Positions 4,543 through 18,727 of a DNA stretch of 64,000 bases are shown piece after piece (position 1 is the stretch's first letter; every line of letters starts with the position of its first letter). The position numbers and the translations under genes are program-made. Source of the stretch: an uncultured Bacteroidia bacterium (GTDB lineage Bacteria; Bacteroidota; Bacteroidia; Bacteroidales; UBA932); NCBI GenBank assembly GCA_902781705.1, contig CACZKE010000010.1, positions 31,360 through 95,359 of the forward strand. Direction: 5' to 3'. Under the pieces are notes generated by a model. It did no database searches. It saw only the letters and a program-made list of their open reading frames with translations, and was not told the DNA's origin.

Positions 4543-6279
4543 TCAGATCAACTCATCCCGCTCCCGCATGTCCTTGATCCTCAATTGGAGGGTGGAGGAG
4601 CCGCGGTAGAAGTTTTCGACGATGGAGTAGCAGACGTCGATGGGGTTGCCGGCCTTGATGTGGTCGTAGAAGTCGGCCATGTTGAAGCCGATGGCCGGAA
4701 TCTGGCGGTAGGGCTGGGATTCCTGCATGAGGTCCAGCTTGAGGTGGATGCCGCCGGCGCCTACTTTGCGGCCGTTTCCGGCGTCATAAACGTCCTCGGT
4801 GAGGAACACGGGGTTCGCGTTCCCGGGGCCGAAGGGCTGGAACTGCTTGAGGATGCGGAAGAACTTCGGGGTGATCTGCGAGAAATCCAGCCGGGCGTCG
4901 ATGTCTACGACCGGGGTGAGTTCCTGCTTGGTGATATTGCCGGAGACGAAGGTGTTCATCCGCCGGCAGAACTCTTCCAGATTCTCCTCCTTCATCGTGA
5001 GGCCGGCGGCATACACATGGCCGCCGAAGTTCTCCAGGAGGTCCGCGCAGCTCTCGATGGAGGCATACAGGTCGAATCCGGCGACGCTGCGGGCCGATCC
5101 GGTGACGAACCCGTTGGACTTGGTGAGAACGACCGTGGGCTTGTAATAGGCCTCCACGAGGCGGGAGGCGACGATGCCCACAACACCCTTGTTCCAGGTG
5201 GGATTATAGACGATGGTCACGTTCTCCGTCTCCAGGGCGGTGCCGTTCGCGACCATCTCCAGGGCTTCCTGGGTGATCTCCCGGTCGATGTTCTTCCGTT
5301 CGTTGTTGTTGTCGTTGATCTTCTCGCCGATCTGGAAGGCCGAGCGGTCGTCCATCGCCGTGAGGAGTTCCACGGCCAGCCGTCCGGATTCCATACGGCC
5401 GGCGGCATTGATGCGGGGACCGATCTTGAACACGATGTCGTCAATGCCCACATGGCCGGGTTCCAGTTTCGCCAGGTTGATCATCGCCAGCAGGCCCTTG
5501 CGCGGATTCTCGTTCAGCCGCTTGAGGCCGTAGTGCGCCAGGACGCGGTTCTCCCCCACCATGGACACGAGGTCGGAGGCGATGGACACCACCTGCAGGT
5601 CCAGGAGGGGTTCCAGGGTCTCGAAATCGATGTTGTATTTCTGGGAATAGCCCTGGACGAACTTGAAGCCCACGCCGCAGCCGCAGAGGTCGTCGAACGG
5701 ATAGTGGTCGTCCTCCTGCTTGGGGTCCAGCACCGCTACCGCGGCCGGGAGTTCGTTCTCCGGAAGATGGTGGTCACAGATGATCACGTCGATGCCCTTG
5801 CTCCGGGCATACTCCACTTTCTCGATGGCCTTGATGCCGCAGTCCAGGGTGATCAGGAGGTCGATGCCGTTGTCCGACGCCCAGTCCAATCCCTTGTAAG
5901 ACAGGCCGTAGCCCTCATCGTAGCGGTCCGGAATGTAGTACTCGACCCGCTTGGTGAAGCGGCGGACGAAGGAATAGACCAGGGCGACGGCCGTCGTGCC
6001 GTCCACATCATAGTCGCCATACACCAGGATCTTCTGGCCCTTCTGGATGGCGTCGTGGAGCCGTTCCACGGCCTTGTCCATGTCCTTCATCAGGAAGGGG
6101 TCATGCAGGTCGCTGAGGGAGGGGCGGAAAAACCGGCGGGCCTGCTCGAAAGTCTCCACGCCGCGCTGGACCAGCAGCTCCGCCAGAACCCGGTCCACGC
6201 CGAGTTCCGTCGCCAGCCGTCCTACCGTTTCCGGATTTCCCGGTTCCCGGACGGTCCATTTCCGCTCCGAAATGCCCAT
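4543..6279 (-). CDS. recJ: Single-stranded-DNA-specific exonuclease RecJ
   Basis: DHH motif (VIICDHH) and DHHA1 motif (FGGHVYAAG). 578 aa. Confidence 0.93.
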   Translation of the reverse strand: MGISERKWTVREPGNPETVGRLATELGVDRVLAELLVQRGVETFEQARRFFRPSLSDLHDPFLMKDMDKAVERLHDAIQKGQKILVYGDYDVDGTTAVALVYSFVRRFTKRVEYYIPDRYDEGYGLSYKGLDWASDNGIDLLITLDCGIKAIEKVEYARSKGIDVIICDHHLPENELPAAVAVLDPKQEDDHYPFDDLCGCGVGFKFVQGYSQKYNIDFETLEPLLDLQVVSIASDLVSMVGENRVLAHYGLKRLNENPRKGLLAMINLAKLEPGHVGIDDIVFKIGPRINAAGRMESGRLAVELLTAMDDRSAFQIGEKINDNNNERKNIDREITQEALEMVANGTALETENVTIVYNPTWNKGVVGIVASRLVEAYYKPTVVLTKSNGFVTGSARSVAGFDLYASIESCADLLENFGGHVYAAGLTMKEENLEEFCRRMNTFVSGNITKQELTPVVDIDARLDFSQITPKFFRILKQFQPFGPGNANPVFLTEDVYDAGNGRKVGAGGIHLKLDLMQESQPYRQIPAIGFNMADFYDHIKAGNPIDVCYSIVENFYRGSSTLQLRIKDMRERDELI

Positions 6280-6318: not shown

Positions 6319-6336
6319 AAAAACCGGAGCGCTCCG
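6319..6336 (-). terminator. Weak candidate terminator downstream of the OMP gene
   Basis: 12-bp perfect palindrome CGGAGCGCTCCG followed on the minus strand by GTTTTTCTT. The loop is very tight, so confidence is low. Confidence 0.3.
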
Positions 6337-6375
6337 ACGAAACCGGCTTCCACCCTTCGCTTCTCAGCCAGGGTG

Positions 6376-6480
6376 TTTTGTACAAGGTGTGATTTCAGGT
6401 GGCATATCTTGTACGTAAAACTTGCTTGGAGGATGTTCCCGCGTACAAGGTGTCACACATGAAAACACACCTTGTACGAC
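6376..6480 (+). repeat. REPIN-like double-hairpin repeat, copy A
   Basis: Hairpin 1 at 6380-6414 (GTACAAGGTGTG...CATATCTTGTAC) and hairpin 2 at 6443-6477 (GTACAAGGTGTC...CACACCTTGTAC). Same unit as at 11333-11437 and 12794-12898. Confidence 0.85.
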
Positions 6481-6486
6481 AGTGAA

Positions 6487-7266
6487 TCAGAAAAGCCAAC
6501 TGATGCCGCCGGAGATGGAGAAATACCAATGGACGGGCTTTTCGGAAGGGGCGCCCACGGGGCGGTCGGTGAGCGGGTCGATGGACTGTTGGAATTCGGT
6601 GAAGTTGTTGGTGACCAGGTAGTGGAACGCCGGCGAAAGGTCCAGGCTGAAGCGCCAGATGGGGATGCTGAGGTTGAAACCGGCATCCGCCGTGAGCATG
6701 AAGCGTTGGTTCAGCAGGATGCCTTGGTCGGATTCGTAACGGGTGCCGTCCATGGAATACCCTTCCAAGCGCCTGCCTATGGAACCGTCGCCGAACACAT
6801 AGCCCGGCGTCACACCCGCAAAGACTTCCGCCCGGCGGAATATGGAAAGCAGGAACACGCCGATTCCTCTCCCGAAGGACTCCTTCACGTCATAATCCAT
6901 CCAGGCGTCGTGAACCAGCTGGGAGGCCGCGCTTTCCGCTCCACGGACCATGGTTTCCCCCCAACTCTCCGTCCCGCTCCGGAGAACCGCCGCAACCGGA
7001 AGGCCGATCCCGTCCTGGACCGACGTGTTCTCCGTCTGGTACATCAGCCCGACCCGCCATCCCCAGTGCCTGGAATAACGACGGGTGTAATTCAGGGAGA
7101 GGAAAGCGTCCCCAGAGGACATCCGGGAATCCATCGGCGTCCAGTATCCATATTCGGCGCGGAGGGTATTCCAGCTCAGGTCCGGATTGAAGCGGGGCTT
7201 TTCCTGGGCGTGTGCCGAAACGGAAGCCACGGCAAGGGCCACCAGCAAAGCAGTAAGCTGTCTCAT
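6487..7266 (-). CDS. Outer-membrane beta-barrel-like protein, function unknown
   Basis: Signal peptide MRQLTALLVALAVASVSAHAQ, alternating-residue strands and C-terminal ...GGISWLF. ATG 7266 chosen over the longer ORF start at 7320. Confidence 0.7.
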   Translation of the reverse strand: MRQLTALLVALAVASVSAHAQEKPRFNPDLSWNTLRAEYGYWTPMDSRMSSGDAFLSLNYTRRYSRHWGWRVGLMYQTENTSVQDGIGLPVAAVLRSGTESWGETMVRGAESAASQLVHDAWMDYDVKESFGRGIGVFLLSIFRRAEVFAGVTPGYVFGDGSIGRRLEGYSMDGTRYESDQGILLNQRFMLTADAGFNLSIPIWRFSLDLSPAFHYLVTNNFTEFQQSIDPLTDRPVGAPSEKPVHWYFSISGGISWLF

Positions 7267-7280
7267 GGTCAGTGAATTTC

Positions 7281-7997
7281 CTAAAGGCCTTCCAATTCTA
7301 TGCCGTCCTGCTTCCACCATTCCGTGTCCGGCTCGTTGAACGGGACGAGGAAGGGGTTGGTCGTGGCTTCACGGCCGATGGAAGTGGGATGGCCGTGGCC
7401 GGGAATGACATCGGTATCGCCGGGAAGTCCCATCACTTTGTCCATGACGGACTTGATGAGGGAATCGTAGTCGCCGCCCTCCAGGTCGGTCCGGCCGATG
7501 CTGCCGGCAAAGAGGGTGTCGCCGGAAAGGAGGACGCCCGCCGCCTCGCAGTAGTAGCAGACGCAGCCGGGCGTATGGCCGGGGGTGGTGATGACCATCC
7601 AGTCCGCTCCGCCGGAGTGGATGACTTGTCCGTCCGAAACATCCTGATAGTCGAACAGTTCCACGGTCTTATGGAGCTGGAGCCGGTCCAGCAGGGAGGA
7701 CCCGAAGCGGAGGGCATAGTCGTCGGCCTGGCTCATATAGACCGGGCAGCCGAAGCGCCTGACGAGCGGCGCGACACCCCAGGTGTGGTCAAAGTGTCCA
7801 TGGGTCAGAAGGATGGCGTCGGGCGTGAGGGCGTTGTCCCGGAGGAACGAAAGCACCTCGTCTTCCTCCTCGTCCCGGAAGAAGCCGGGGTCCACGACGG
7901 TGCAGGGCGTAAGTCCCTCACTCTTTGCGGAATCCTCCCAGAGGACGACGCAGTTTTCACCCAGCGGATTGACCTGGAATATCTTGACCTGAAGCAT
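7281..7997 (-). CDS. MBL-fold metallo-hydrolase (glyoxalase II-like)
   Basis: HxHxDH motif (THGHFDHTWG). 238 aa. Confidence 0.85.
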   Translation of the reverse strand: MLQVKIFQVNPLGENCVVLWEDSAKSEGLTPCTVVDPGFFRDEEEDEVLSFLRDNALTPDAILLTHGHFDHTWGVAPLVRRFGCPVYMSQADDYALRFGSSLLDRLQLHKTVELFDYQDVSDGQVIHSGGADWMVITTPGHTPGCVCYYCEAAGVLLSGDTLFAGSIGRTDLEGGDYDSLIKSVMDKVMGLPGDTDVIPGHGHPTSIGREATTNPFLVPFNEPDTEWWKQDGIELEGL

Positions 7998-8017
7998 GGC
8001 GGAGTCGGATTAGGTTG

Positions 8018-8025
8018 CAAATTTA
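8018..8025 (-). promoter_or_regulatory. -7 box (TAAATTTG) for the MBL hydrolase gene
   Basis: Reverse complement TAAATTTG, 20 nt upstream of ATG 7997. Confidence 0.45.
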
Positions 8026-8066
8026 CGGATATTTTCCCAACTTTGTAAAGATAAGCACCCATCTGT

Positions 8067-8678
8067 ATGCACATCGGAATCGCAGGCAATATCGGCAGCG
8101 GAAAGACGACGCTCACCACCCTCCTCGCCCGCCACTACGGCTGGACACCGAAGTTCGAGTCGGTGACCTATAACCCCTATCTGGCTGACTATTACGCGGA
8201 TATCAAGCGCTGGTCCTTCGCCCTGGAGATGTATTTCCTCAACAAGCGCCTTCACGACGTCATCGAGATCGCGAAGTCCGACGAGGTCGTCATCCAGGAC
8301 CGTACCGTGATGGAGGGCGTCCATATTTTCGTCGCGAACAATTACGCGCAGGGGAACCTCTCGGAACGGGACTACAACACGTTCATGGATTCCTACAACG
8401 TGATGATGGAGGTTGTGAAACAGCCGGACCTGCTGATCTACCTGAAGAGTTCCATCGAACACCTCGTCGCCCAGATCGCCAAGCGCGGGCGGGACTATGA
8501 ACAGAGCATCTCCATCGAGTACCTCGCCGGTCTGAACGATCGGTACGAGGAGTGGATCGGGAACTACACCGGGCGCCTCATCACCATCGACGTGGACGAC
8601 CTGGATTTCCTCAACCGCCCCGAGGATTTCGCCCTCATCACCGACCGCATCGACGCGGAGCTTTATGGTTTATTCTGA
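8067..8678 (+). CDS. Deoxynucleoside kinase (paralog 1)
   Basis: P-loop GNIGSGKTT. dNK-family length (203 aa). Roughly 55-60% identical by eye to the next gene. Confidence 0.85.
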   Translation: MHIGIAGNIGSGKTTLTTLLARHYGWTPKFESVTYNPYLADYYADIKRWSFALEMYFLNKRLHDVIEIAKSDEVVIQDRTVMEGVHIFVANNYAQGNLSERDYNTFMDSYNVMMEVVKQPDLLIYLKSSIEHLVAQIAKRGRDYEQSISIEYLAGLNDRYEEWIGNYTGRLITIDVDDLDFLNRPEDFALITDRIDAELYGLF

Positions 8679-8687
8679 TTTATTTGC

Positions 8688-8695
8688 TACTTTTG
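8688..8695 (+). promoter_or_regulatory. -7 box (TACTTTTG) for the second dNK gene
   Basis: TAnnTTTG match, 17 nt upstream of ATG 8712. Confidence 0.45.
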
Positions 8696-8711
8696 TAAAA
8701 ATATAGACGCT

Positions 8712-9332
8712 ATGCATATCGCCATCGCCGGAAATATCGGCAGCGGAAAGACCACGCTGACCAAGATGCTCGCCGCCCATTACGGCTGGACCCCGAAGTT
8801 CGAATCCGTGGACTTCAATCCGTATCTTGCTGATTTCTACGAGGATATGGAGCGCTGGTCCTTCAACCTCCAGATTTACTTCCTGAACAAGCGTTTCCAG
8901 GACGTGGTGGAGATCTCCAAGCAGAAGGACATCATCATCCAGGACCGCACCATCTACGAGGACGCCCGCATCTTCGCCCCGAACCTCCATGCGATGGGCC
9001 TGATGAGCACCCGGGACTTCGAGAACTACAGCGACCTCTTCGACCTGATGATGTCCCTCGTGAACCCGCCGGACCTGCTGATCTATCTCCGGAGCTCCAT
9101 CCCGAACCTCATCGCCCAGATCCAGAAGCGCGGCCGTGAGTACGAGCGCTCCATCCGTATCGACTACATCACCGGCCTGAACCAGCGCTATGAGGACTGG
9201 ATCAAGGACTACAAGTCCCGCCTCCTCATCGTGGACGTGGACAACATCAAGTTCGAGAACCGCCCGGAGGACTTCCAGGTCATCACCGACAAAATCGACG
9301 CCGAACTGTTCGGCCTGTTCCCTTCCGCATAA
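8712..9332 (+). CDS. Deoxynucleoside kinase (paralog 2)
   Basis: P-loop GNIGSGKTT. 206 aa. Tandem paralog of 8067-8678. Confidence 0.85.
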   Translation: MHIAIAGNIGSGKTTLTKMLAAHYGWTPKFESVDFNPYLADFYEDMERWSFNLQIYFLNKRFQDVVEISKQKDIIIQDRTIYEDARIFAPNLHAMGLMSTRDFENYSDLFDLMMSLVNPPDLLIYLRSSIPNLIAQIQKRGREYERSIRIDYITGLNQRYEDWIKDYKSRLLIVDVDNIKFENRPEDFQVITDKIDAELFGLFPSA

Positions 9333-9362
9333 CGGAGGGAACTCTTTTATCATCCATAAACT

Positions 9363-11285
9363 ATGACAGAAAGACCTACGATTATCGACTTCGTGGAGAA
9401 GTACTCCCGGCAGTTCGCCGACCATGTGTACCTCCGCGAAAAAGTCGATGGCACCTGGCGTGAGATCACCCAGGAACAGACCCGTAACGAGGCCTACCGC
9501 ATCGGCGCCGGCCTGATTTCCCTCGGCCTGCAGAAAGGTGACAAGATCGCCCTCCTTTCCGAGAGCCGTGCGATGTGGATCATGGCCGAACTCGGTGCCC
9601 TGTACGCCGGGGCGACCGACGTCCCCCTCTCCGTGAACCTCGGGGAAGGGAAGGACCTCGTCTTCCGCATCAACCATTCCGAGTCCAAGTGGATCTTCGT
9701 TTCGGGCAACCACCTGCCCAAGATCCGCGCCATCCTTCCGGAGTGCCCGGACGTGGAAAAGGTCATCGTCTTCGATGACAACGCTTTCGACTACGACAAG
9801 CTCGGGGAGAAGGAGATCCGGATGTCCGAGATCCAGAAGATGGGCGACGAGTTCCTGAAGGCCCACATGGACGAGTTCGTGGCCCGCTACAAGTCCATCG
9901 GCCCGGACGATTATGCCAACATTTCCTACACCTCCGGCACCACGGCGGATCCGAAGGGTATCCTCCTGACGCACCGGAACTACACGGCCAACGTGGCCCA
10001 GGGCAACTCCGTCATCTCCATCGGCGAGAACGAGGTGATGCTCATCATCCTCCCGCTGGACCACTGTTTCGCGCACGTGGCGGGCATGTACACGATGATG
10101 TACTACGGCGGTTCCATCGCCTTCGTGCCCATCGGCAAGAACGCCCTCGCCACCCTGCGGAACGTTCCGGCCGCCATTGCGGAGACGCGTCCGCACGTGA
10201 TGCTGTCCGTACCGGCCCTGGCCCGCAACTTCAAGAAGAACATCGAAGGCGGCATCAAGAAGCAGGGTCCGAAGGTGGAGAAACTCTTCAACTTCGCCCT
10301 TCAGAACGCCATCAAGTACAACAAGGAATACTACAACCGCGGCACCGGCGGAACCTTCTGGCGGAAGCCCCTCGTGGACCTCTTCGACAAGATCCTGTTC
10401 AAGAAGGTGCGCGAGAGTTTCGGCGGTAGGATGAAGTTCTTCGTGGGTGGCGGCGCCCTCCTGGACATCGAGCTCCAGCGCTTCTTCTGCGCCGTGGGCA
10501 TGCCCATGTTCCAGGGCTACGGCCTCACCGAGGCCACCCCGATCATCTGCGCCAATTCCGCGGGCCACGCCCGGTTCGGCTCTTCCGGCCGCCTCGTGAA
10601 GCCCATGGACTGCGTGATCCTGGACGCGGAAGGCAAGGAAGTCCCGCACGGCACCCGCGGCGAGATCGTCATCCGCGGCGAGAACGTGATGGCCGGCTAC
10701 TGGAAGAACCCCAAGGCCACGGCCGACACTGTCATCGACGGCTGGCTCCACACCGGCGACATGGGCTACATCTGCCCGGAAGACCCTGATTTCCTGTATG
10801 TTGTGGGCCGCTTCAAGAGCCTCCTGATCTCCTCCGACGGCGAGAAGTATTCCCCGGAAGGCTTCGAGGACAACCTCACCGAGACGTCCAAGTTTGTCAA
10901 TGCCTGCGTGCTGCATAACAACCAGAACCCGTATTGCGTCGCCCTGATCGTTCCCGACAAGGCCGCGCTGAAGGAAGCCGTGGAAGCCAAGGGACTGGAC
11001 GCCGCATCCGTCGAGGGTCGCAAGGCCATGCTGGACATCCTTCAGGCCGAGGTGGACACCTACAAGAAGGGCGGCAAGCACGAGGGTATGTTCCCGGAGC
11101 GCTGGCTCCCGACTGCCATCGGCATCTGCGACGAGGAATTCACCATCGCCAACAAGATGATGAACTCCACGATGAAGATCGTCCGCGGCAAAGTGGAGGA
11201 GCACTATGCCTCCCTGCTGGATTACCTCTATACCGCCGAGGGCAAGGATATCCGGAACGAACGCAACGTGGAGGCGCTGAAATAG
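9363..11285 (+). CDS. Long-chain fatty acid--CoA ligase (AMP-forming)
   Basis: AMP-binding signature YTSGTTADPKGILLTH, GYGLTE and the later GWLHTGD motif. 640 aa. Confidence 0.88.
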   Translation: MTERPTIIDFVEKYSRQFADHVYLREKVDGTWREITQEQTRNEAYRIGAGLISLGLQKGDKIALLSESRAMWIMAELGALYAGATDVPLSVNLGEGKDLVFRINHSESKWIFVSGNHLPKIRAILPECPDVEKVIVFDDNAFDYDKLGEKEIRMSEIQKMGDEFLKAHMDEFVARYKSIGPDDYANISYTSGTTADPKGILLTHRNYTANVAQGNSVISIGENEVMLIILPLDHCFAHVAGMYTMMYYGGSIAFVPIGKNALATLRNVPAAIAETRPHVMLSVPALARNFKKNIEGGIKKQGPKVEKLFNFALQNAIKYNKEYYNRGTGGTFWRKPLVDLFDKILFKKVRESFGGRMKFFVGGGALLDIELQRFFCAVGMPMFQGYGLTEATPIICANSAGHARFGSSGRLVKPMDCVILDAEGKEVPHGTRGEIVIRGENVMAGYWKNPKATADTVIDGWLHTGDMGYICPEDPDFLYVVGRFKSLLISSDGEKYSPEGFEDNLTETSKFVNACVLHNNQNPYCVALIVPDKAALKEAVEAKGLDAASVEGRKAMLDILQAEVDTYKKGGKHEGMFPERWLPTAIGICDEEFTIANKMMNSTMKIVRGKVEEHYASLLDYLYTAEGKDIRNERNVEALK

Positions 11286-11304
11286 CCTCCTGTCGCATCT
11301 CTTA

Positions 11305-11336
11305 AGCCCGGCTCGTCATGAGACCGGGCTTTTTTT
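11305..11336 (+). terminator. Rho-independent terminator after the acyl-CoA ligase gene
   Basis: AGCCCGG-(12 nt)-CCGGGCT stem followed by TTTTTTT. Confidence 0.7.
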
Positions 11337-11437
11337 GTACAAGGTGTGATTTCAAGCGGCACACCATGTACGTGAAAACCGTTTGTAGTCCATTTTCTTG
11401 TACAAGATGTCACATCTGAAATCACACCTTGTACAGG
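11333..11437 (+). repeat. REPIN-like double-hairpin repeat, copy B
   Basis: Hairpin 1 at 11337-11371 (GTACAAGGTGTG...CACACCATGTAC) and hairpin 2 at 11400-11434 (GTACAAGATGTC...CACACCTTGTAC). The RAYT-like gene's stop codon (11422-11424) lies inside hairpin 2. Confidence 0.85.
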
Positions 11438-12354
11438 ATGGCCTGAATCTCTTCCCGTTTCATCCCGAAGATGCGGGCGAGTTGCGCGACCGTCGTTTTC
11501 CGAGTCCGGTGGAAATAGGGAATGATGCGCATTTTCTGAAGGCGTGACAAAAACGCAGTCTCCAGACCGAACCAGCGGCGCGCCACTTCTGAGGCATCCT
11601 GGACCACTTCGCTGTCCGGACGGAACGTTCGTGGGGCATCCACCAGTTTTTCACGCATCTCCGCCGCGTTCAAGGTGCCGATGGTCCGGATGAAATAGGA
11701 CTGGTCGTGATTGAAAGCCTGCTCCAGGTATTCCGTGTCGCAGAAACTATCCGGGACCAGATGCCCGTCCGCATCCATCAGCCAAGGTACATCCGAAAGG
11801 TCATCTCCGGTGTGGAAATACGCCCGGCACTCGCGCCGGGTCATGTCCCGGACCCGCCAGGGTGGTCCTTTCCCTTTCGCCGAACTACCCGTTTTCTCCT
11901 TGCGGAACATGGCGGGGTAGCCTGACCAGGGATAATCATTGACATTGCAACCGTTGTCCAATGCGTTTCTCGGGACATACGCCAAGGTGTTCCGGACATA
12001 CCAGTCGGAGTCCAGGAGAAAGGCCTTCATGTCCGTCCGACGGAGGATCTTCCTTTCTCCGTACCGTCGGGAGATCCACATGGATGCCATGCGTTTCACC
12101 TCTTCACCATAGGCATCGGCATCCTCCTGGCAGGATGCCAGGACGGTAACGTGGCTATGGTTGGAGACCACGGTATAAATGACCACAATGACATTCTTCC
12201 GGCGTGAGGCGACGGCAATAACCTTGACAAAAGCATCATAATCATCGTCGTCACGACATAACACGGCACATTCCAGTCCTTCCAGGCATACATGGTACGG
12301 CTGGACATAACGGATGCTCCCATCCGGGAGCACCCGCGAGACGATACGCTTCAT
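11422..12354 (-). CDS. REP-associated tyrosine transposase-like protein (IS200/Y1 HUH fold) with an extra C-terminal helix-turn-helix-like region
   Basis: HxH motif in VVSNHSHVTVL. Downstream pattern AYVPRNALDNGCNVNDYPWSGY matches the Y-x3-N...DYPWS signature of COG1943/RAYT proteins. 310 aa. Flanked by REPIN copies B and C. Confidence 0.75.
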   Translation of the reverse strand: MKRIVSRVLPDGSIRYVQPYHVCLEGLECAVLCRDDDDYDAFVKVIAVASRRKNVIVVIYTVVSNHSHVTVLASCQEDADAYGEEVKRMASMWISRRYGERKILRRTDMKAFLLDSDWYVRNTLAYVPRNALDNGCNVNDYPWSGYPAMFRKEKTGSSAKGKGPPWRVRDMTRRECRAYFHTGDDLSDVPWLMDADGHLVPDSFCDTEYLEQAFNHDQSYFIRTIGTLNAAEMREKLVDAPRTFRPDSEVVQDASEVARRWFGLETAFLSRLQKMRIIPYFHRTRKTTVAQLARIFGMKREEIQAILYKV

Positions 12355-12357
12355 CGG

Positions 12358-12711
12358 CTAGCTCCTGCTTTTGGGTGGAGCGACGCCGGGGCCGAAGACC
12401 ATCACCTTTCCGCCTGTTTCCTCGAAAGCCTTGCGGGCGGCTTGGAGGGAATCCGCCAGGCCGGCCGAGGCTTCATTCAGGAAACCGACCATCTGGCGGC
12501 GGTTCACGCTGACGCCGAGATCCGAGATGGCCAGCGCCCGGATCATCGCCAGGACGGCCTGCTCGTTGCCTCCCCAGAGGGTCGTCATCATGGCCATGGC
12601 CAGTTCGATGACGGTTTGGTGGATGATGGACGGATCCTTGGAAGGATCGATATCCGTGTGGAAACGGATGTCATTTTCTCCGTAACGGAGCACTTCAAGA
12701 ATTTTCTTCAT
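12358..12711 (-). CDS. Hypothetical 117-aa protein co-transcribed with the RAYT-like gene
   Basis: ATG 12711 (MKKILEVLRYGENDIRFHTD...). Its stop is 3 nt before the RAYT ATG. I recognise no motif. The longer ORF start (12876) would run through REPIN copy C. Confidence 0.6.
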   Translation of the reverse strand: MKKILEVLRYGENDIRFHTDIDPSKDPSIIHQTVIELAMAMMTTLWGGNEQAVLAMIRALAISDLGVSVNRRQMVGFLNEASAGLADSLQAARKAFEETGGKVMVFGPGVAPPKSRS

Positions 12712-12793
12712 GACGCACAAATCTTTCAACGCTTCGGCGAAAATAGCACATCCTTGAGTGAAATCCAAATCTTTTCCACCGAGGAAGACGCAC

Positions 12794-12898
12794 TTTTGTA
12801 CAAGGTGTGTTTTCATGTGTGACATCTTGTACGCGGGAAGGCCCTCCACGCAAGTTTTGCGTACAAGATGTGTCACCTGAAATCATACCTTGCACAAA
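12794..12898 (+). repeat. REPIN-like double-hairpin repeat, copy C
   Basis: Hairpin 1 at 12798-12832 (GTACAAGGTGTG...GACATCTTGTAC) and hairpin 2 at 12861-12895 (GTACAAGATGTG...CATACCTTGCAC). Confidence 0.85.
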
Positions 12899-12954
12899 AT
12901 CGTCCTCACGGCCAAATATTTGCAGAAAGATTTGGCCGTTCCGGAAAAACAATC

Positions 12955-13705: not shown

Positions 13706-13775
13706 ATTTCTCGACTTCGCTCGAAATGACAAAGGCACGCTCGAAATGACAAAGGCACACTCGAAATGACGATTT
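13704..13775 (+). repeat. 27-nt repeat family, intergenic copy with tandem expansion
   Basis: AGATTTCTCGACTTCGCTCGAAATGACA followed by 2.6 tandem copies of a 20-bp unit (GCTCGAAATGACAAAGGCAC) at 13719-13770. Confidence 0.85.
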
Positions 13776-17391: not shown

Positions 17392-18716
17392 GGAAGCTGT
17401 TGACACTCACCGTCCTGCTCATGCCGATGGCCCTGCAGGCGCAGGACCTCTCCCGTCCATGGACGCTGCAGGAGTGCCTGGACTGGGCCCTGGAGCACAA
17501 CCTGACCATCAAGCAGGGTGAGAACGCTGTCGCCCAGCAGGAAATCCGGCTGAATACGGCGAAAAACGCCTACTTTCCCACCGTCAGCGGATCTGCCAAC
17601 GAGAGCGTGAACTTCGGCCGCGGCCTGACTTCGGACAACACCTACACCACCGGATCCACCACGACGAATACGAGTTTCTCCATCGGCGCAGGTCTCAACC
17701 TGTTCGACGGCATGGCCCGCCCGAACAACATCAAACTTTCGCAGTTGAACCTGGACGCCGCCGTAGCCGACCTGGAACGCGCCCGGGACGATATCCGGGT
17801 CGCCGTCGCCAAGGCCTACGTCCAGGCGGTCTATGACTACGACATCCTGGACGTCGCCCGCGAGCAGGTGGAGCTGGACAGGCAGCAGGTAGCGCGGCTG
17901 GAAGCGATGGTGGAAAACGGAAAGGCCTCGCAGGCGGAACTGTCGGCCCAGAAAGCCACGCTCGCCCAAAGCGAATACACCCTCGTGCAGGCGGAAAACG
18001 GCCTGCGCAGCGCCCTGCTGGACCTTTCGCAGCTGCTGGACTTCCCGACGGCGGACGGTTTCGGGATCGTCAAGCCCGAGATTGCCGTCGGCGACCACCT
18101 CATCGCCCGGCCCGAGGACATCTACGCCGAGGCCGTGGAGCGGCGTCCGGGCATCCGGGCCGAACAGCTCCGCCTGGACGGGACCGACCTCTCCATCAGA
18201 ATCGCCAAGGCCGGCTGGTCCCCCACCCTGTCGCTGAGCGGCGGCATGGGCACGAGTTACTACACCAACAGCGGTTCCCTCTACCCCCAGGACGGCTTTT
18301 GGAAACAACTCTCGCACAACTTCAGCCCGTATGTGGGCCTGTCCCTGAACGTTCCGATCTTCGACCGCTTCGGCACCCGCAACAATGTGCGCAGCGCCGT
18401 CCTCAACCGTGAACTGCAGCAGATTACCCTGGACCGGACGCGCCAGAACCTGTACAAGGAAATCCAACAGGCCCATGCCAACGCCCTCGCCGCGGAGGCG
18501 AAATACCGCTCCGCCACGGAAGCGACCGCCGCGGCCGAGGACGCCTTCGCCCTCTCCACCGCCAAGTATGAAAACGGGAAATCTTCCGTCACCGAATACA
18601 ACGAAGCCCGTACCCGCCTCGCCAAAGCCCGGTCCGACAAGGCCCAGGCCGCCTGCGAGTACCTCTTCCAGTCCCGCCTCCTGGACTTCTACCGCGGCGG
18701 GGCGCTGGAATTATAG
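17388..18716 (+). CDS. TolC-family outer membrane efflux protein
   Basis: Signal peptide and two-repeat OEP architecture. 442 aa. ATGA overlap with the adaptor gene. Confidence 0.88.
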   Translation: MRKLLTLTVLLMPMALQAQDLSRPWTLQECLDWALEHNLTIKQGENAVAQQEIRLNTAKNAYFPTVSGSANESVNFGRGLTSDNTYTTGSTTTNTSFSIGAGLNLFDGMARPNNIKLSQLNLDAAVADLERARDDIRVAVAKAYVQAVYDYDILDVAREQVELDRQQVARLEAMVENGKASQAELSAQKATLAQSEYTLVQAENGLRSALLDLSQLLDFPTADGFGIVKPEIAVGDHLIARPEDIYAEAVERRPGIRAEQLRLDGTDLSIRIAKAGWSPTLSLSGGMGTSYYTNSGSLYPQDGFWKQLSHNFSPYVGLSLNVPIFDRFGTRNNVRSAVLNRELQQITLDRTRQNLYKEIQQAHANALAAEAKYRSATEATAAAEDAFALSTAKYENGKSSVTEYNEARTRLAKARSDKAQAACEYLFQSRLLDFYRGGALEL

Positions 18717-18727
18717 GATTATTTCCG

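Follow-up and report, generated by a model that had tools for sequence, protein, structure and literature searches.

What is a pair of minus-strand genes, bracketed by double hairpins and set between a metabolic gene and a transporter operon, doing in the genome of an uncultured gut bacterium? The question is raised by a stretch of 64,000 nucleotides, hereafter the window, taken from contig CACZKE010000010.1 of an uncultured Bacteroidia bacterium (assembly GCA_902781705.1) and sitting inside a 216-kb ENA contig. A 310-aa open reading frame (ORF; 11422-12354, minus strand) and a 117-aa ORF (12358-12711, minus strand) are placed there between the terminator of an acyl-CoA ligase gene (9363-11285, plus strand) and the promoter region of an ATP-binding cassette (ABC) transporter operon (from 12992, plus strand). 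An initial annotation, made from the sequence, took the larger gene for a REP-associated tyrosine transposase (RAYT) and its flanking hairpins for paired repetitive extragenic palindromic (REP) sequences, or REPINs, and proposed a REPIN-RAYT system of the Bacteroidota. Our analysis supports that proposal. With a probability of about three in four, we read the locus as a REPIN-RAYT system, or 'REPtron', that belongs to a divergent lineage confined to rumen Bacteroidales and in which, by analogy with characterized enzymes, the transposase most likely mobilises the hairpin-pair repeat that flanks it.

The larger gene encodes a RAYT-like HUH transposase of the Y1 type, as indicated by its ORF, its motifs and its predicted fold. 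The HxH and Y-x3-N...DYPWS patterns on which it had been recognized are indeed present, as NHSHV and AYVPRN...DYPWSG, and the key residues (H66, H68, Y126, N130, Y141, W143 and S144) do not vary among 21 homologs with identities of 57-91%. H66 and H68 make up the HUH motif, Asn130 stands four residues past Tyr126, and the catalytic domain occupies residues 1 to ~145. In the survey by Quentin et al. (PMC6006769), an Asn four residues after the Tyr is the signature of class 2 (RAYT) enzymes, whereas class 1 IS200 enzymes carry Gln. All 21 members of the family match the Pfam model Y1_Tnp (PF01797), the best with an E-value of 2e-6. In Foldseek, the top PDB matches of an AlphaFold2 model of the protein (predicted local distance difference test score, pLDDT, 80.5; predicted TM-score, pTM, 0.80) were ISDra2 TnpA, IS608 TnpA, the E. 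coli RAYT 4er8 and an IS200 transposase of Sulfolobus, with probabilities of 0.94-1.0, TM-scores on the target of 0.5-0.59 and E-values of only 0.016-0.3; for ISDra2 TnpA, IS608 TnpA and 4er8 the probabilities were 0.99-1.0 and the TM-scores 0.5-0.57. Furthermore, HxH, Y-x3-N and (D)(Y/W)P(W/F)S lie in register with E. coli RayT (HMH, YIYIN). The best match outside the family is a 'transposase' from a Skermanella plasmid, 24% identical over residues 1-258 (tblastn E 1e-4), which passes the Pfam Y1_Tnp threshold (37.7 bits) and whose NHFH and YVEANP motifs are again in register. Three homologs carry the IMG name 'REP element-mobilizing transposase RayT'. PHROGs and PADLOC returned nothing for this protein or for the 117-aa protein. 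Because the family falls below the thresholds of standard family models, routine annotation calls its members hypothetical proteins.

Beyond the catalytic domain the protein carries a family-specific C-terminal extension. The initial annotation had described about 100 residues resembling a helix-turn-helix; the extension is real, but it is longer (~165 residues, 146-310), and the likeness to a helix-turn-helix is weak and limited to the last ~35 residues. At residues 275-307, HTH_PafC is matched in 10 of the 21 members (best E 0.0012), and CENP-B_N, Crp, Sigma70_r4 and MarR_2 weakly in one or two members each. Bac_DnaA_C (PF08299), proposed earlier as a domain to look for, has no Pfam match in the transposase family, nor do HTH_23 and HTH_28, so that a DnaA-like domain is unsupported. 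Both genes of the pair are under purifying selection, with ratios of nonsynonymous to synonymous divergence (dN/dS) among strains of 0.08 for the transposase and 0.07-0.08 for its partner. As a separate observation, the synonymous divergence (dS) of the transposase between strains (the window against L209 and L210) is 0.52-0.54, roughly twice that of neighbouring genes (0.15-0.30), which suggests older alleles or allele exchange at the transposase gene. In three loci (L020, L055 and L062, about 4835-5999), a transposase homolog lacking the small gene lies immediately downstream of dprA (DNA-processing protein A).

The DNA around the gene pair carries the second part of the argument. Three REPINs were found in the window: R2 (11333-11437), with inverted 37-nt REP units at 11336-11372 and 11399-11435 and a 26-nt spacer; R3 (12794-12899), with units at 12797-12833 and 12860-12896; and R1 (6376-6484), with units at 6379-6415 and 6442-6478, lying 4.9 kb from the transposase. 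In each doublet the two palindromic units are inverted with respect to one another, 63 nt start to start, and each doublet forms one long hairpin that folds better than any of 200 shuffled versions (z-scores -5.5 to -7.9). It had been claimed that the same 105-bp double hairpin stands on both sides of the gene pair. Doublets do flank it, but they are not the same, R2 and R3 being only 71-74% identical, and the third doublet had been missed. R2 and R3 are mutually inverted, with 103-nt arms that are 76% complementary. The left end of R2 adjoins the T-run of the acyl-CoA ligase terminator, and its right arm (11422-11435) encodes the last four codons and the TGA stop of the transposase (CTG TAC AAG GTG TGA), which bears out the earlier remark that the stop codon lies inside a hairpin arm. 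R3 is upstream of the small gene and adjoins the ABC-transporter promoter region. R1 is a reverse-oriented copy of the R3 type, 86-87% identical over 109 nt, spacer included, to reversed R3 and to its ortholog Rb described below. The 12-mer arm (allowing up to two mismatches) occurs 15 times in the window where 2.5 occurrences are expected, a count reached by none of 100 shuffles; beyond R1, R2 and R3, no other repeat of the 37-nt design was found in the 64 kb. An array of the CRISPR kind was considered, in view of 36-nt repeats with 27-nt spacers, and dropped, since there are only two units per site and these are inverted.

The association of gene and repeat extends across the family. The 80 homologous loci all come from metagenome-assembled genomes (MAGs) of uncultured ruminant-gut Bacteroidales, bar two short, probably misbinned contigs; these two (L013 and L063) bear the gene and were placed, probably by mistaken binning, in a Clostridia MAG and a Fibrobacter MAG. 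Units within ~0.5 kb of the gene were counted by a search anchored on the 10-nt outer stem; a hairpin census allowing G-T pairs counted background hairpins, and one keyed on the variable inner stem missed most units. By this count, 73 of the 80 loci carry 37-nt units within ~0.5 kb of the gene, 150 units in total, and 145 of these are exactly 37 nt long. The commonest unit spacing is 75 nt; in the window's clade it is 63 nt. The units conform to a consensus, Y-G-N-N-N-A-A-G-G-T ... A-C-C-T-T-N-N-N-C-R, of which the variable stem positions differ by lineage (for example GTACAAGG, GATCAAGG, GGGCAAGG, GGGGAAGG, GGGAGAGG and GGACCTGG), and MAGs with two paralogs carry two repeat types. The design of the unit thus stays the same throughout the family and the sequence of its outer stem follows the lineage of the transposase; this is the kind of gene-repeat co-variation that defines REPtrons. 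One MAG, RGIG3197 (L001 and L005), holds two alleles of one chromosomal locus, so that this bin mixes two strains or species.

The palindromes could in principle have nothing to do with the gene and be standard terminators, or inverted repeats that arose by chance in its vicinity. R2 does adjoin a terminator T-run, and all the doublets are intergenic. However, the number of arms in the window, the co-variation of repeat with protein lineage and the number of fixed-design units beside the gene across the family, for which a rough back-of-envelope estimate of chance expectation is below one, together refute this explanation, to which we attach almost no credence.

The repeat is also found away from the gene, in keeping with the initial annotation, which had made its occurrence elsewhere a point to be checked. 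In addition to the third doublet in the window, a search of JGI metagenome contigs with the exact pattern of the window's unit found it in 98 stretches. We fetched 80 of these repeat loci, and 72 of them hold no relative of either protein; 84 repeat sites resolve into ~43 distinct flanking contexts. Among the 80 family loci, 23 have similar hairpins more than 0.5 kb from the gene, a figure from a separate hairpin census that may include unrelated terminators. Spacer lengths at dispersed sites are quantised (28, 40 and 49 nt), and a single 40-nt spacer type turns up in six or more unrelated contexts. Since doublets at separate sites have spacers in common, it is the doublet together with its spacer that is copied, and this is how a REPIN is defined (PMC3116915, PMC5581495). 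A separate case lies remote from any transposase gene: in L112 (11201-11859) a 420-nt segment stands between two REPINs, where the related L123 (11029-11146) has a single REPIN and no segment, a REPIN-bounded rearrangement.

Comparison of close relatives, chosen as contigs encoding an ABC ATPase or deoxynucleoside kinase protein identical to that of the window, revealed three arrangements of the locus. In type A (the window and at least nine assemblies), the order is recJ, 56 nt, R1, a segment running from a 259-aa gene to the acyl-CoA ligase gene, R2, transposase, small gene, R3 and the ABC operon. Type B (two assemblies) has the 4.9-kb segment in the opposite orientation and the gene pair flanked by a REPIN on either side; its recJ junction has no REPIN. 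Type C (at least eight assemblies) has the segment oriented as in B, and both gene pair and REPIN are absent. R2 and R3 are orthologous to the type-B repeats Ra (87% identical) and Rb (88% identical), respectively. The 4.9-kb segment (6485-11332 in the window, between R1 and R2) comprises the 259-aa gene, a metallo-beta-lactamase-fold gene, two deoxynucleoside kinase genes and the acyl-CoA ligase gene. On the R2 side, homology between types A and B sets in precisely where the REPIN starts, with the initial base of GTACAAGG. A stretch of ~52-56 nt from the recJ promoter region to R1 (6324-6375, or to 6379 when the TTTT in common with R1 is included) is restricted to type-A strains. R1 itself is a recent and strain-limited copy, which points to ongoing copying of the repeat.

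Loss is equally in evidence. Two type-C contigs (L084 and L086) retain a 16-nt repeat remnant, TACACCTTGTACAAAA, at the former cassette site, which indicates that the cassette was lost there and that the site is not an unoccupied target; the empty sites of L082, L085 and L089 contain no repeat at all. One type-B contig (L206, 8380-9363) has a nonsense codon in the transposase (YLE*AF, residue 212). In the same contig the REPIN beside the transposase is deleted down to its last arm, AAATCACACCTTGTAC, and the stop codon of the neighbouring 259-aa gene is removed with it. Both deletions, that leaving the 16-nt type-C remnant and that of L206, end at the loop-to-arm boundary of a unit.

The gene pair nonetheless has a stable address. 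In the gene-bearing contigs of this species that were examined, the transposase is always at the same site. Two sister lineages (L005 and L006), whose neighbouring proteins are ~93% identical to those of the window, carry at the orthologous site a gene pair only 64-68% identical with a different REP, TGATCAAGGTC, and the two orientations of the segment are split between them, one each. Diverged alleles at an orthologous locus in two sister lineages argue for long residence and vertical descent. The transposase evolves together with its repeat and faster than its neighbours, and the adjoining DNA rearranges repeatedly.

These strain data bear on a second rival, namely that the gene pair and its flanking doublets form an autonomous insertion sequence (IS) of the IS200/IS605 or 'TIRYT' kind, with the doublets as terminal inverted repeats and the scattered REPINs as miniature derivatives. 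The mutual inversion of R2 and R3 would suit such an element, as would the presence or absence of the cassette among strains with an identical ABC ATPase, the repeat-free empty sites, the several MAGs with more than one copy, and the resemblance of the nearest outside protein to subclass 2.1, which includes the TIRYTs in the Quentin et al. survey (PMC6006769). Against this, no near-identical copies were seen at different sites, every gene-bearing contig of the species having the single locus; the alleles of the sister lineages are strongly diverged in place; paralogs within a MAG share no more than ~70% identity and differ in their repeats; the remnants in L084 and L086 mark losses; and no relatives are found on IMG/VR viral contigs and only remote ones, none close, on plasmids. 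We regard an autonomous element as improbable.

A third rival accepts the link between protein and palindrome and denies the movement. The transposase might be a domesticated HUH nuclease or DNA-binding protein that moves nothing, the gene pair having a host function at palindromes that are themselves host terminators, mRNA stabilisers or protein-binding sites, spread long ago or otherwise. Strong purifying selection on both genes, the fixed locus, the seemingly low copy number and the placing of REPINs at gene ends beside terminators and promoters are what domestication would predict, and the dispensability of the gene pair in some strains and the single nonsense allele may be entered on the same side. 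However, the catalytic Tyr, the two His and the Asn are kept without exception in a family whose members have diverged to about 50% identity, the repeat sequence changes with the protein lineage at a fixed unit length of 37 nt, doublets with the same spacer lie at several unrelated sites, and R1 is a recent reversed copy of R3 present in some strains only. Domestication is in our view unlikely, and we retain the REPIN-RAYT reading.

The second gene of the pair is the least familiar component. Its TAG stop (12358-12360) and the ATG of the transposase (12352-12354) are separated by 3 nt, as the coordinates and the database searches confirm for an ORF that had been described as upstream, coupled and without recognizable family: none was found in Pfam, NCBIfam, PHROGs or PADLOC. 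A longer reading of 172 aa from a GTG start lacks support, since conservation among homologs starts at MKKILEV. There are 425 homologs, most of them 117 aa long, with a nearly invariant centre, LWGGNEQAVLAMIRAL. An exhaustive profile search of 1.84 billion proteins gave only 77 representatives, all stand-alone, of similar length and free of domain fusions, and remote homology consequently gives no functional lead. The structural model is mediocre (pLDDT 69), a beta-hairpin and three helices, and its fold search returned nothing above a probability of 0.2. The gene stands directly upstream of a transposase homolog in 38 of the 80 loci, and a divergent ORF with the same N-terminus is found in two more. 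The expectation that the small ORF would be conserved beside homologous transposases therefore holds for part of the family only, which makes it an optional and not a universal partner; its distribution on a distance tree of the transposase is patchy and is best read as that of an old gene with repeated losses. Both genes are represented in contigs from ruminant gut metatranscriptomes, at a depth below that of their neighbours, and one contig runs across the transposase-partner junction, which fits a single transcript and is also compatible with DNA carry-over.

With this, each of the three outcomes that the initial annotation had named as fatal to its inference has been checked, and none was found: the family matches Y1_Tnp, the repeat is present elsewhere and the small ORF recurs beside homologous transposases. 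There remain several observations that weigh against a REPIN-RAYT system and account for our restraint, carry-over in the contig data being one. The window's own protein scores only 17.3 bits against Y1_Tnp, where the cut-off is 23 (E 0.0055), so that the Pfam match is shared by the whole family and stays below the cut-off for this member. NCBIfam has no match for the transposase, a PDB sequence-profile search with the profile of the 21 homologs gave a chance hit only, and the family showed no significant alignment to the lone E. coli RayT sequence in hhalign (probability 0.13). Between the two His of the HUH motif stands Ser, Cys or Phe, as opposed to the typical hydrophobic residue, and the Tyr motif is Y[VI]PRNA, as opposed to YxxxNP. 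The repeats have no GTAG or CGTC tag and are palindromic to the ends of the units. Copy number looks low, with three doublets in 64 kb, two of them beside the gene, and a rough density on long metagenome contigs of about one exact match per 100-400 kb. Several MAGs hold two or three divergent transposase paralogs. Finally, simple recombination between pre-existing REPINs was rejected as the origin of the inversion, type-B strains and L006 having no REPIN at the distal breakpoint.

How might such a system work? Extrapolating from E. coli TnpA-REP and from the TnpA proteins of IS608 and ISDra2, we suggest that the transposase would bind the hairpins that REP sequences extrude where DNA is single-stranded, as at replication forks, would cut beside them through a covalent 5'-phosphotyrosine link and would then rejoin the ends. 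REPINs would in this manner be copied or moved in trans while the transposase gene keeps its one chromosomal site. The C-terminal extension and the 117-aa protein most likely contribute to DNA binding, to oligomerisation or to the control of activity, roles at which we can but guess. REPINs, or cleavage at REPINs, may also drive local rearrangement, including loss of the cassette, deletions ending in a REP loop and the 4.9-kb inversion. The last of these is unlikely to be an assembly artefact and was rejected as such, since each arrangement recurs in independent assemblies and R1 and R2 are too dissimilar to be confused. It is tempting to speculate further that the transposase and the 117-aa protein together form a two-component machine for site-specific breakage and joining at chromosomal REPIN ends, yielding the inversion and the REP-loop deletions. 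One of the inversion breakpoints coincides exactly with the end of a REPIN, and an identity of only 76% makes the two REPINs poor substrates for homologous recombination; we nevertheless hold this idea to be doubtful. If it is true, gut Bacteroidales would possess a natural rearrangement system guided by hairpins, together with a new family of accessory proteins.

Several features of the neighbourhood were recorded in passing. The two deoxynucleoside kinase genes (8067-8678 and 8712-9332) are adjacent paralogs with a DNA identity of ~71%. The 259-aa gene (6487-7320 in the window) has an internal deletion of ~650 nt in L082, L085, L086 and L089, and its intact copies have a dN/dS of 0.24-0.25, the maximum of the neighbourhood. 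From the stop of the ABC ATPase to the start of the FtsX permease (13710-13775) runs a tandem repeat of a ~20-nt unit, CGCTCGAAATGACAAAGGCA, with three copies in the window, two in L084 and none in L082; a related motif, TGTCATTCTGAAC, is doubled in L084 and L091 in the interval between the second permease gene and the membrane-fusion gene. In some strains an insertion of ~250 nt separates the outer-membrane efflux gene from the polyprenyl synthase gene (L084 11751-12002; window 18710-18722). A hairpin whose stem is 15 bp long, GCGGCAAGGGGTACC...GGTTACCCCTTGCCGC, lies inside this insertion, which may itself be a further small mobile element.

Of replicators that live within genomes and pass on vertically, RAYT-REPIN systems are the best example, and detailed work on them comes nearly all from Proteobacteria. 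The lineage described here extends them to abundant, uncultured Bacteroidales of the rumen. It brings together three features not previously described in combination: a protein of doubled length with a helix-turn-helix at its end, a conserved and apparently co-transcribed partner that matches no recognised fold, and a rigid 37-nt repeat with few variable 'address' positions that change with the protein. As repeat and protein are paired lineage by lineage, the family offers many natural pairs from which to learn how a Y1 enzyme reads hairpins. The strain variants (cassette loss, a nonsense allele, loop-ended deletions and a REPIN-bounded inversion) provide natural experiments of the sort required to learn how RAYTs affect their hosts.

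Where, then, does the system stand among those already known? Its closest likeness is to the REPIN-RAYT systems of E. coli (RayT/TnpA-REP, PDB 4er8) and Pseudomonas fluorescens. They have in common the HUH fold with its HxH, Tyr and Asn at +4; a gene bracketed by its own palindromic repeats; inverted doublets that form one long hairpin and are copied with their spacer; repeats scattered intergenically without the gene; and one gene per repeat type at a fixed locus, with several gene-repeat pairs per genome possible, a single-copy and vertical pattern that in our case rests on incomplete MAGs, at least one of them mixed. The differences are also clear. The protein is 310 aa long, compared with about 150-200, and has NH[S/C/F]H and Y[V/I]PRNA in place of xH[hydrophobic]H and YxxxNP. 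The classical REP super-families carry a GTAG or CGTC tetranucleotide at the REP foot (PMC3733652), whereas the unit here is a fully palindromic YG-NNN-AAGGT design of 37 nt without either. A 117-aa gene is apparently co-transcribed, copy number is seemingly low, and the protein is too divergent for NCBIfam, the window's member missing the Pfam threshold as well.

Among the subclasses set out by Quentin et al. (PMC6006769), two invite comparison. Subclass 2.1 TnpA-Y1 (Bertels Group 1 RAYTs, including 'TIRYT') has in common with our family a Y1 core, a HUH motif of the NHxH type and a long C-terminal extension ending in a helix-turn-helix, and the Skermanella protein appears 2.1-like when judged by motifs and length only. 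Members of 2.1 are described there, however, as having no REP-like sequences nearby or short GGGG[AT][CG]A[CG] terminal inverted repeats, whereas clear cognate REP doublets are present here, and the Bac_DnaA_C, HTH_23 and HTH_28 matches are missing. Subclass 2.6 (Bertels Group 5), which is found mainly in Bacteroidetes, belongs to the same phylum, is REPtron-like and has copies of its flanking structures elsewhere in the genome; the same source describes these as 'atypical secondary structures' and gives an average length of 179 aa and the motifs NH[LIV]H, WQ and YIH[QN]NP. Our protein differs in having 310 aa, NH[S/C/F]H, MW and Y[V/I]PRNA, and the passages of the survey consulted report neither a long C-terminal extension nor a partner gene for 2.6. 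Because the survey describes REPtron-like arrangements in Bacteroidetes for both subclasses 2.4 and 2.6, the initial description of such a system as little characterised is true of the rumen lineage only and not of the phylum.

IS200/IS605 elements also invite comparison. The TnpA proteins of IS608 and ISDra2 have the same catalytic fold, are the top structural matches and likewise have hairpin-forming DNA partners. They are however ~130-150 aa long with YxxxQ, and their elements occur in multiple copies, carry a different subterminal hairpin at each end and frequently include tnpB. The system here has 310 aa, YxxxN, symmetric doublets and one locus per strain, with no tnpB in the neighbourhood of the transposase. 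Taken together, these comparisons place it outside every subclass tabulated by Quentin et al. (PMC6006769): REPIN-RAYT systems are a kind already known, and what the window presents is an enlarged, two-gene and previously undescribed form of them.

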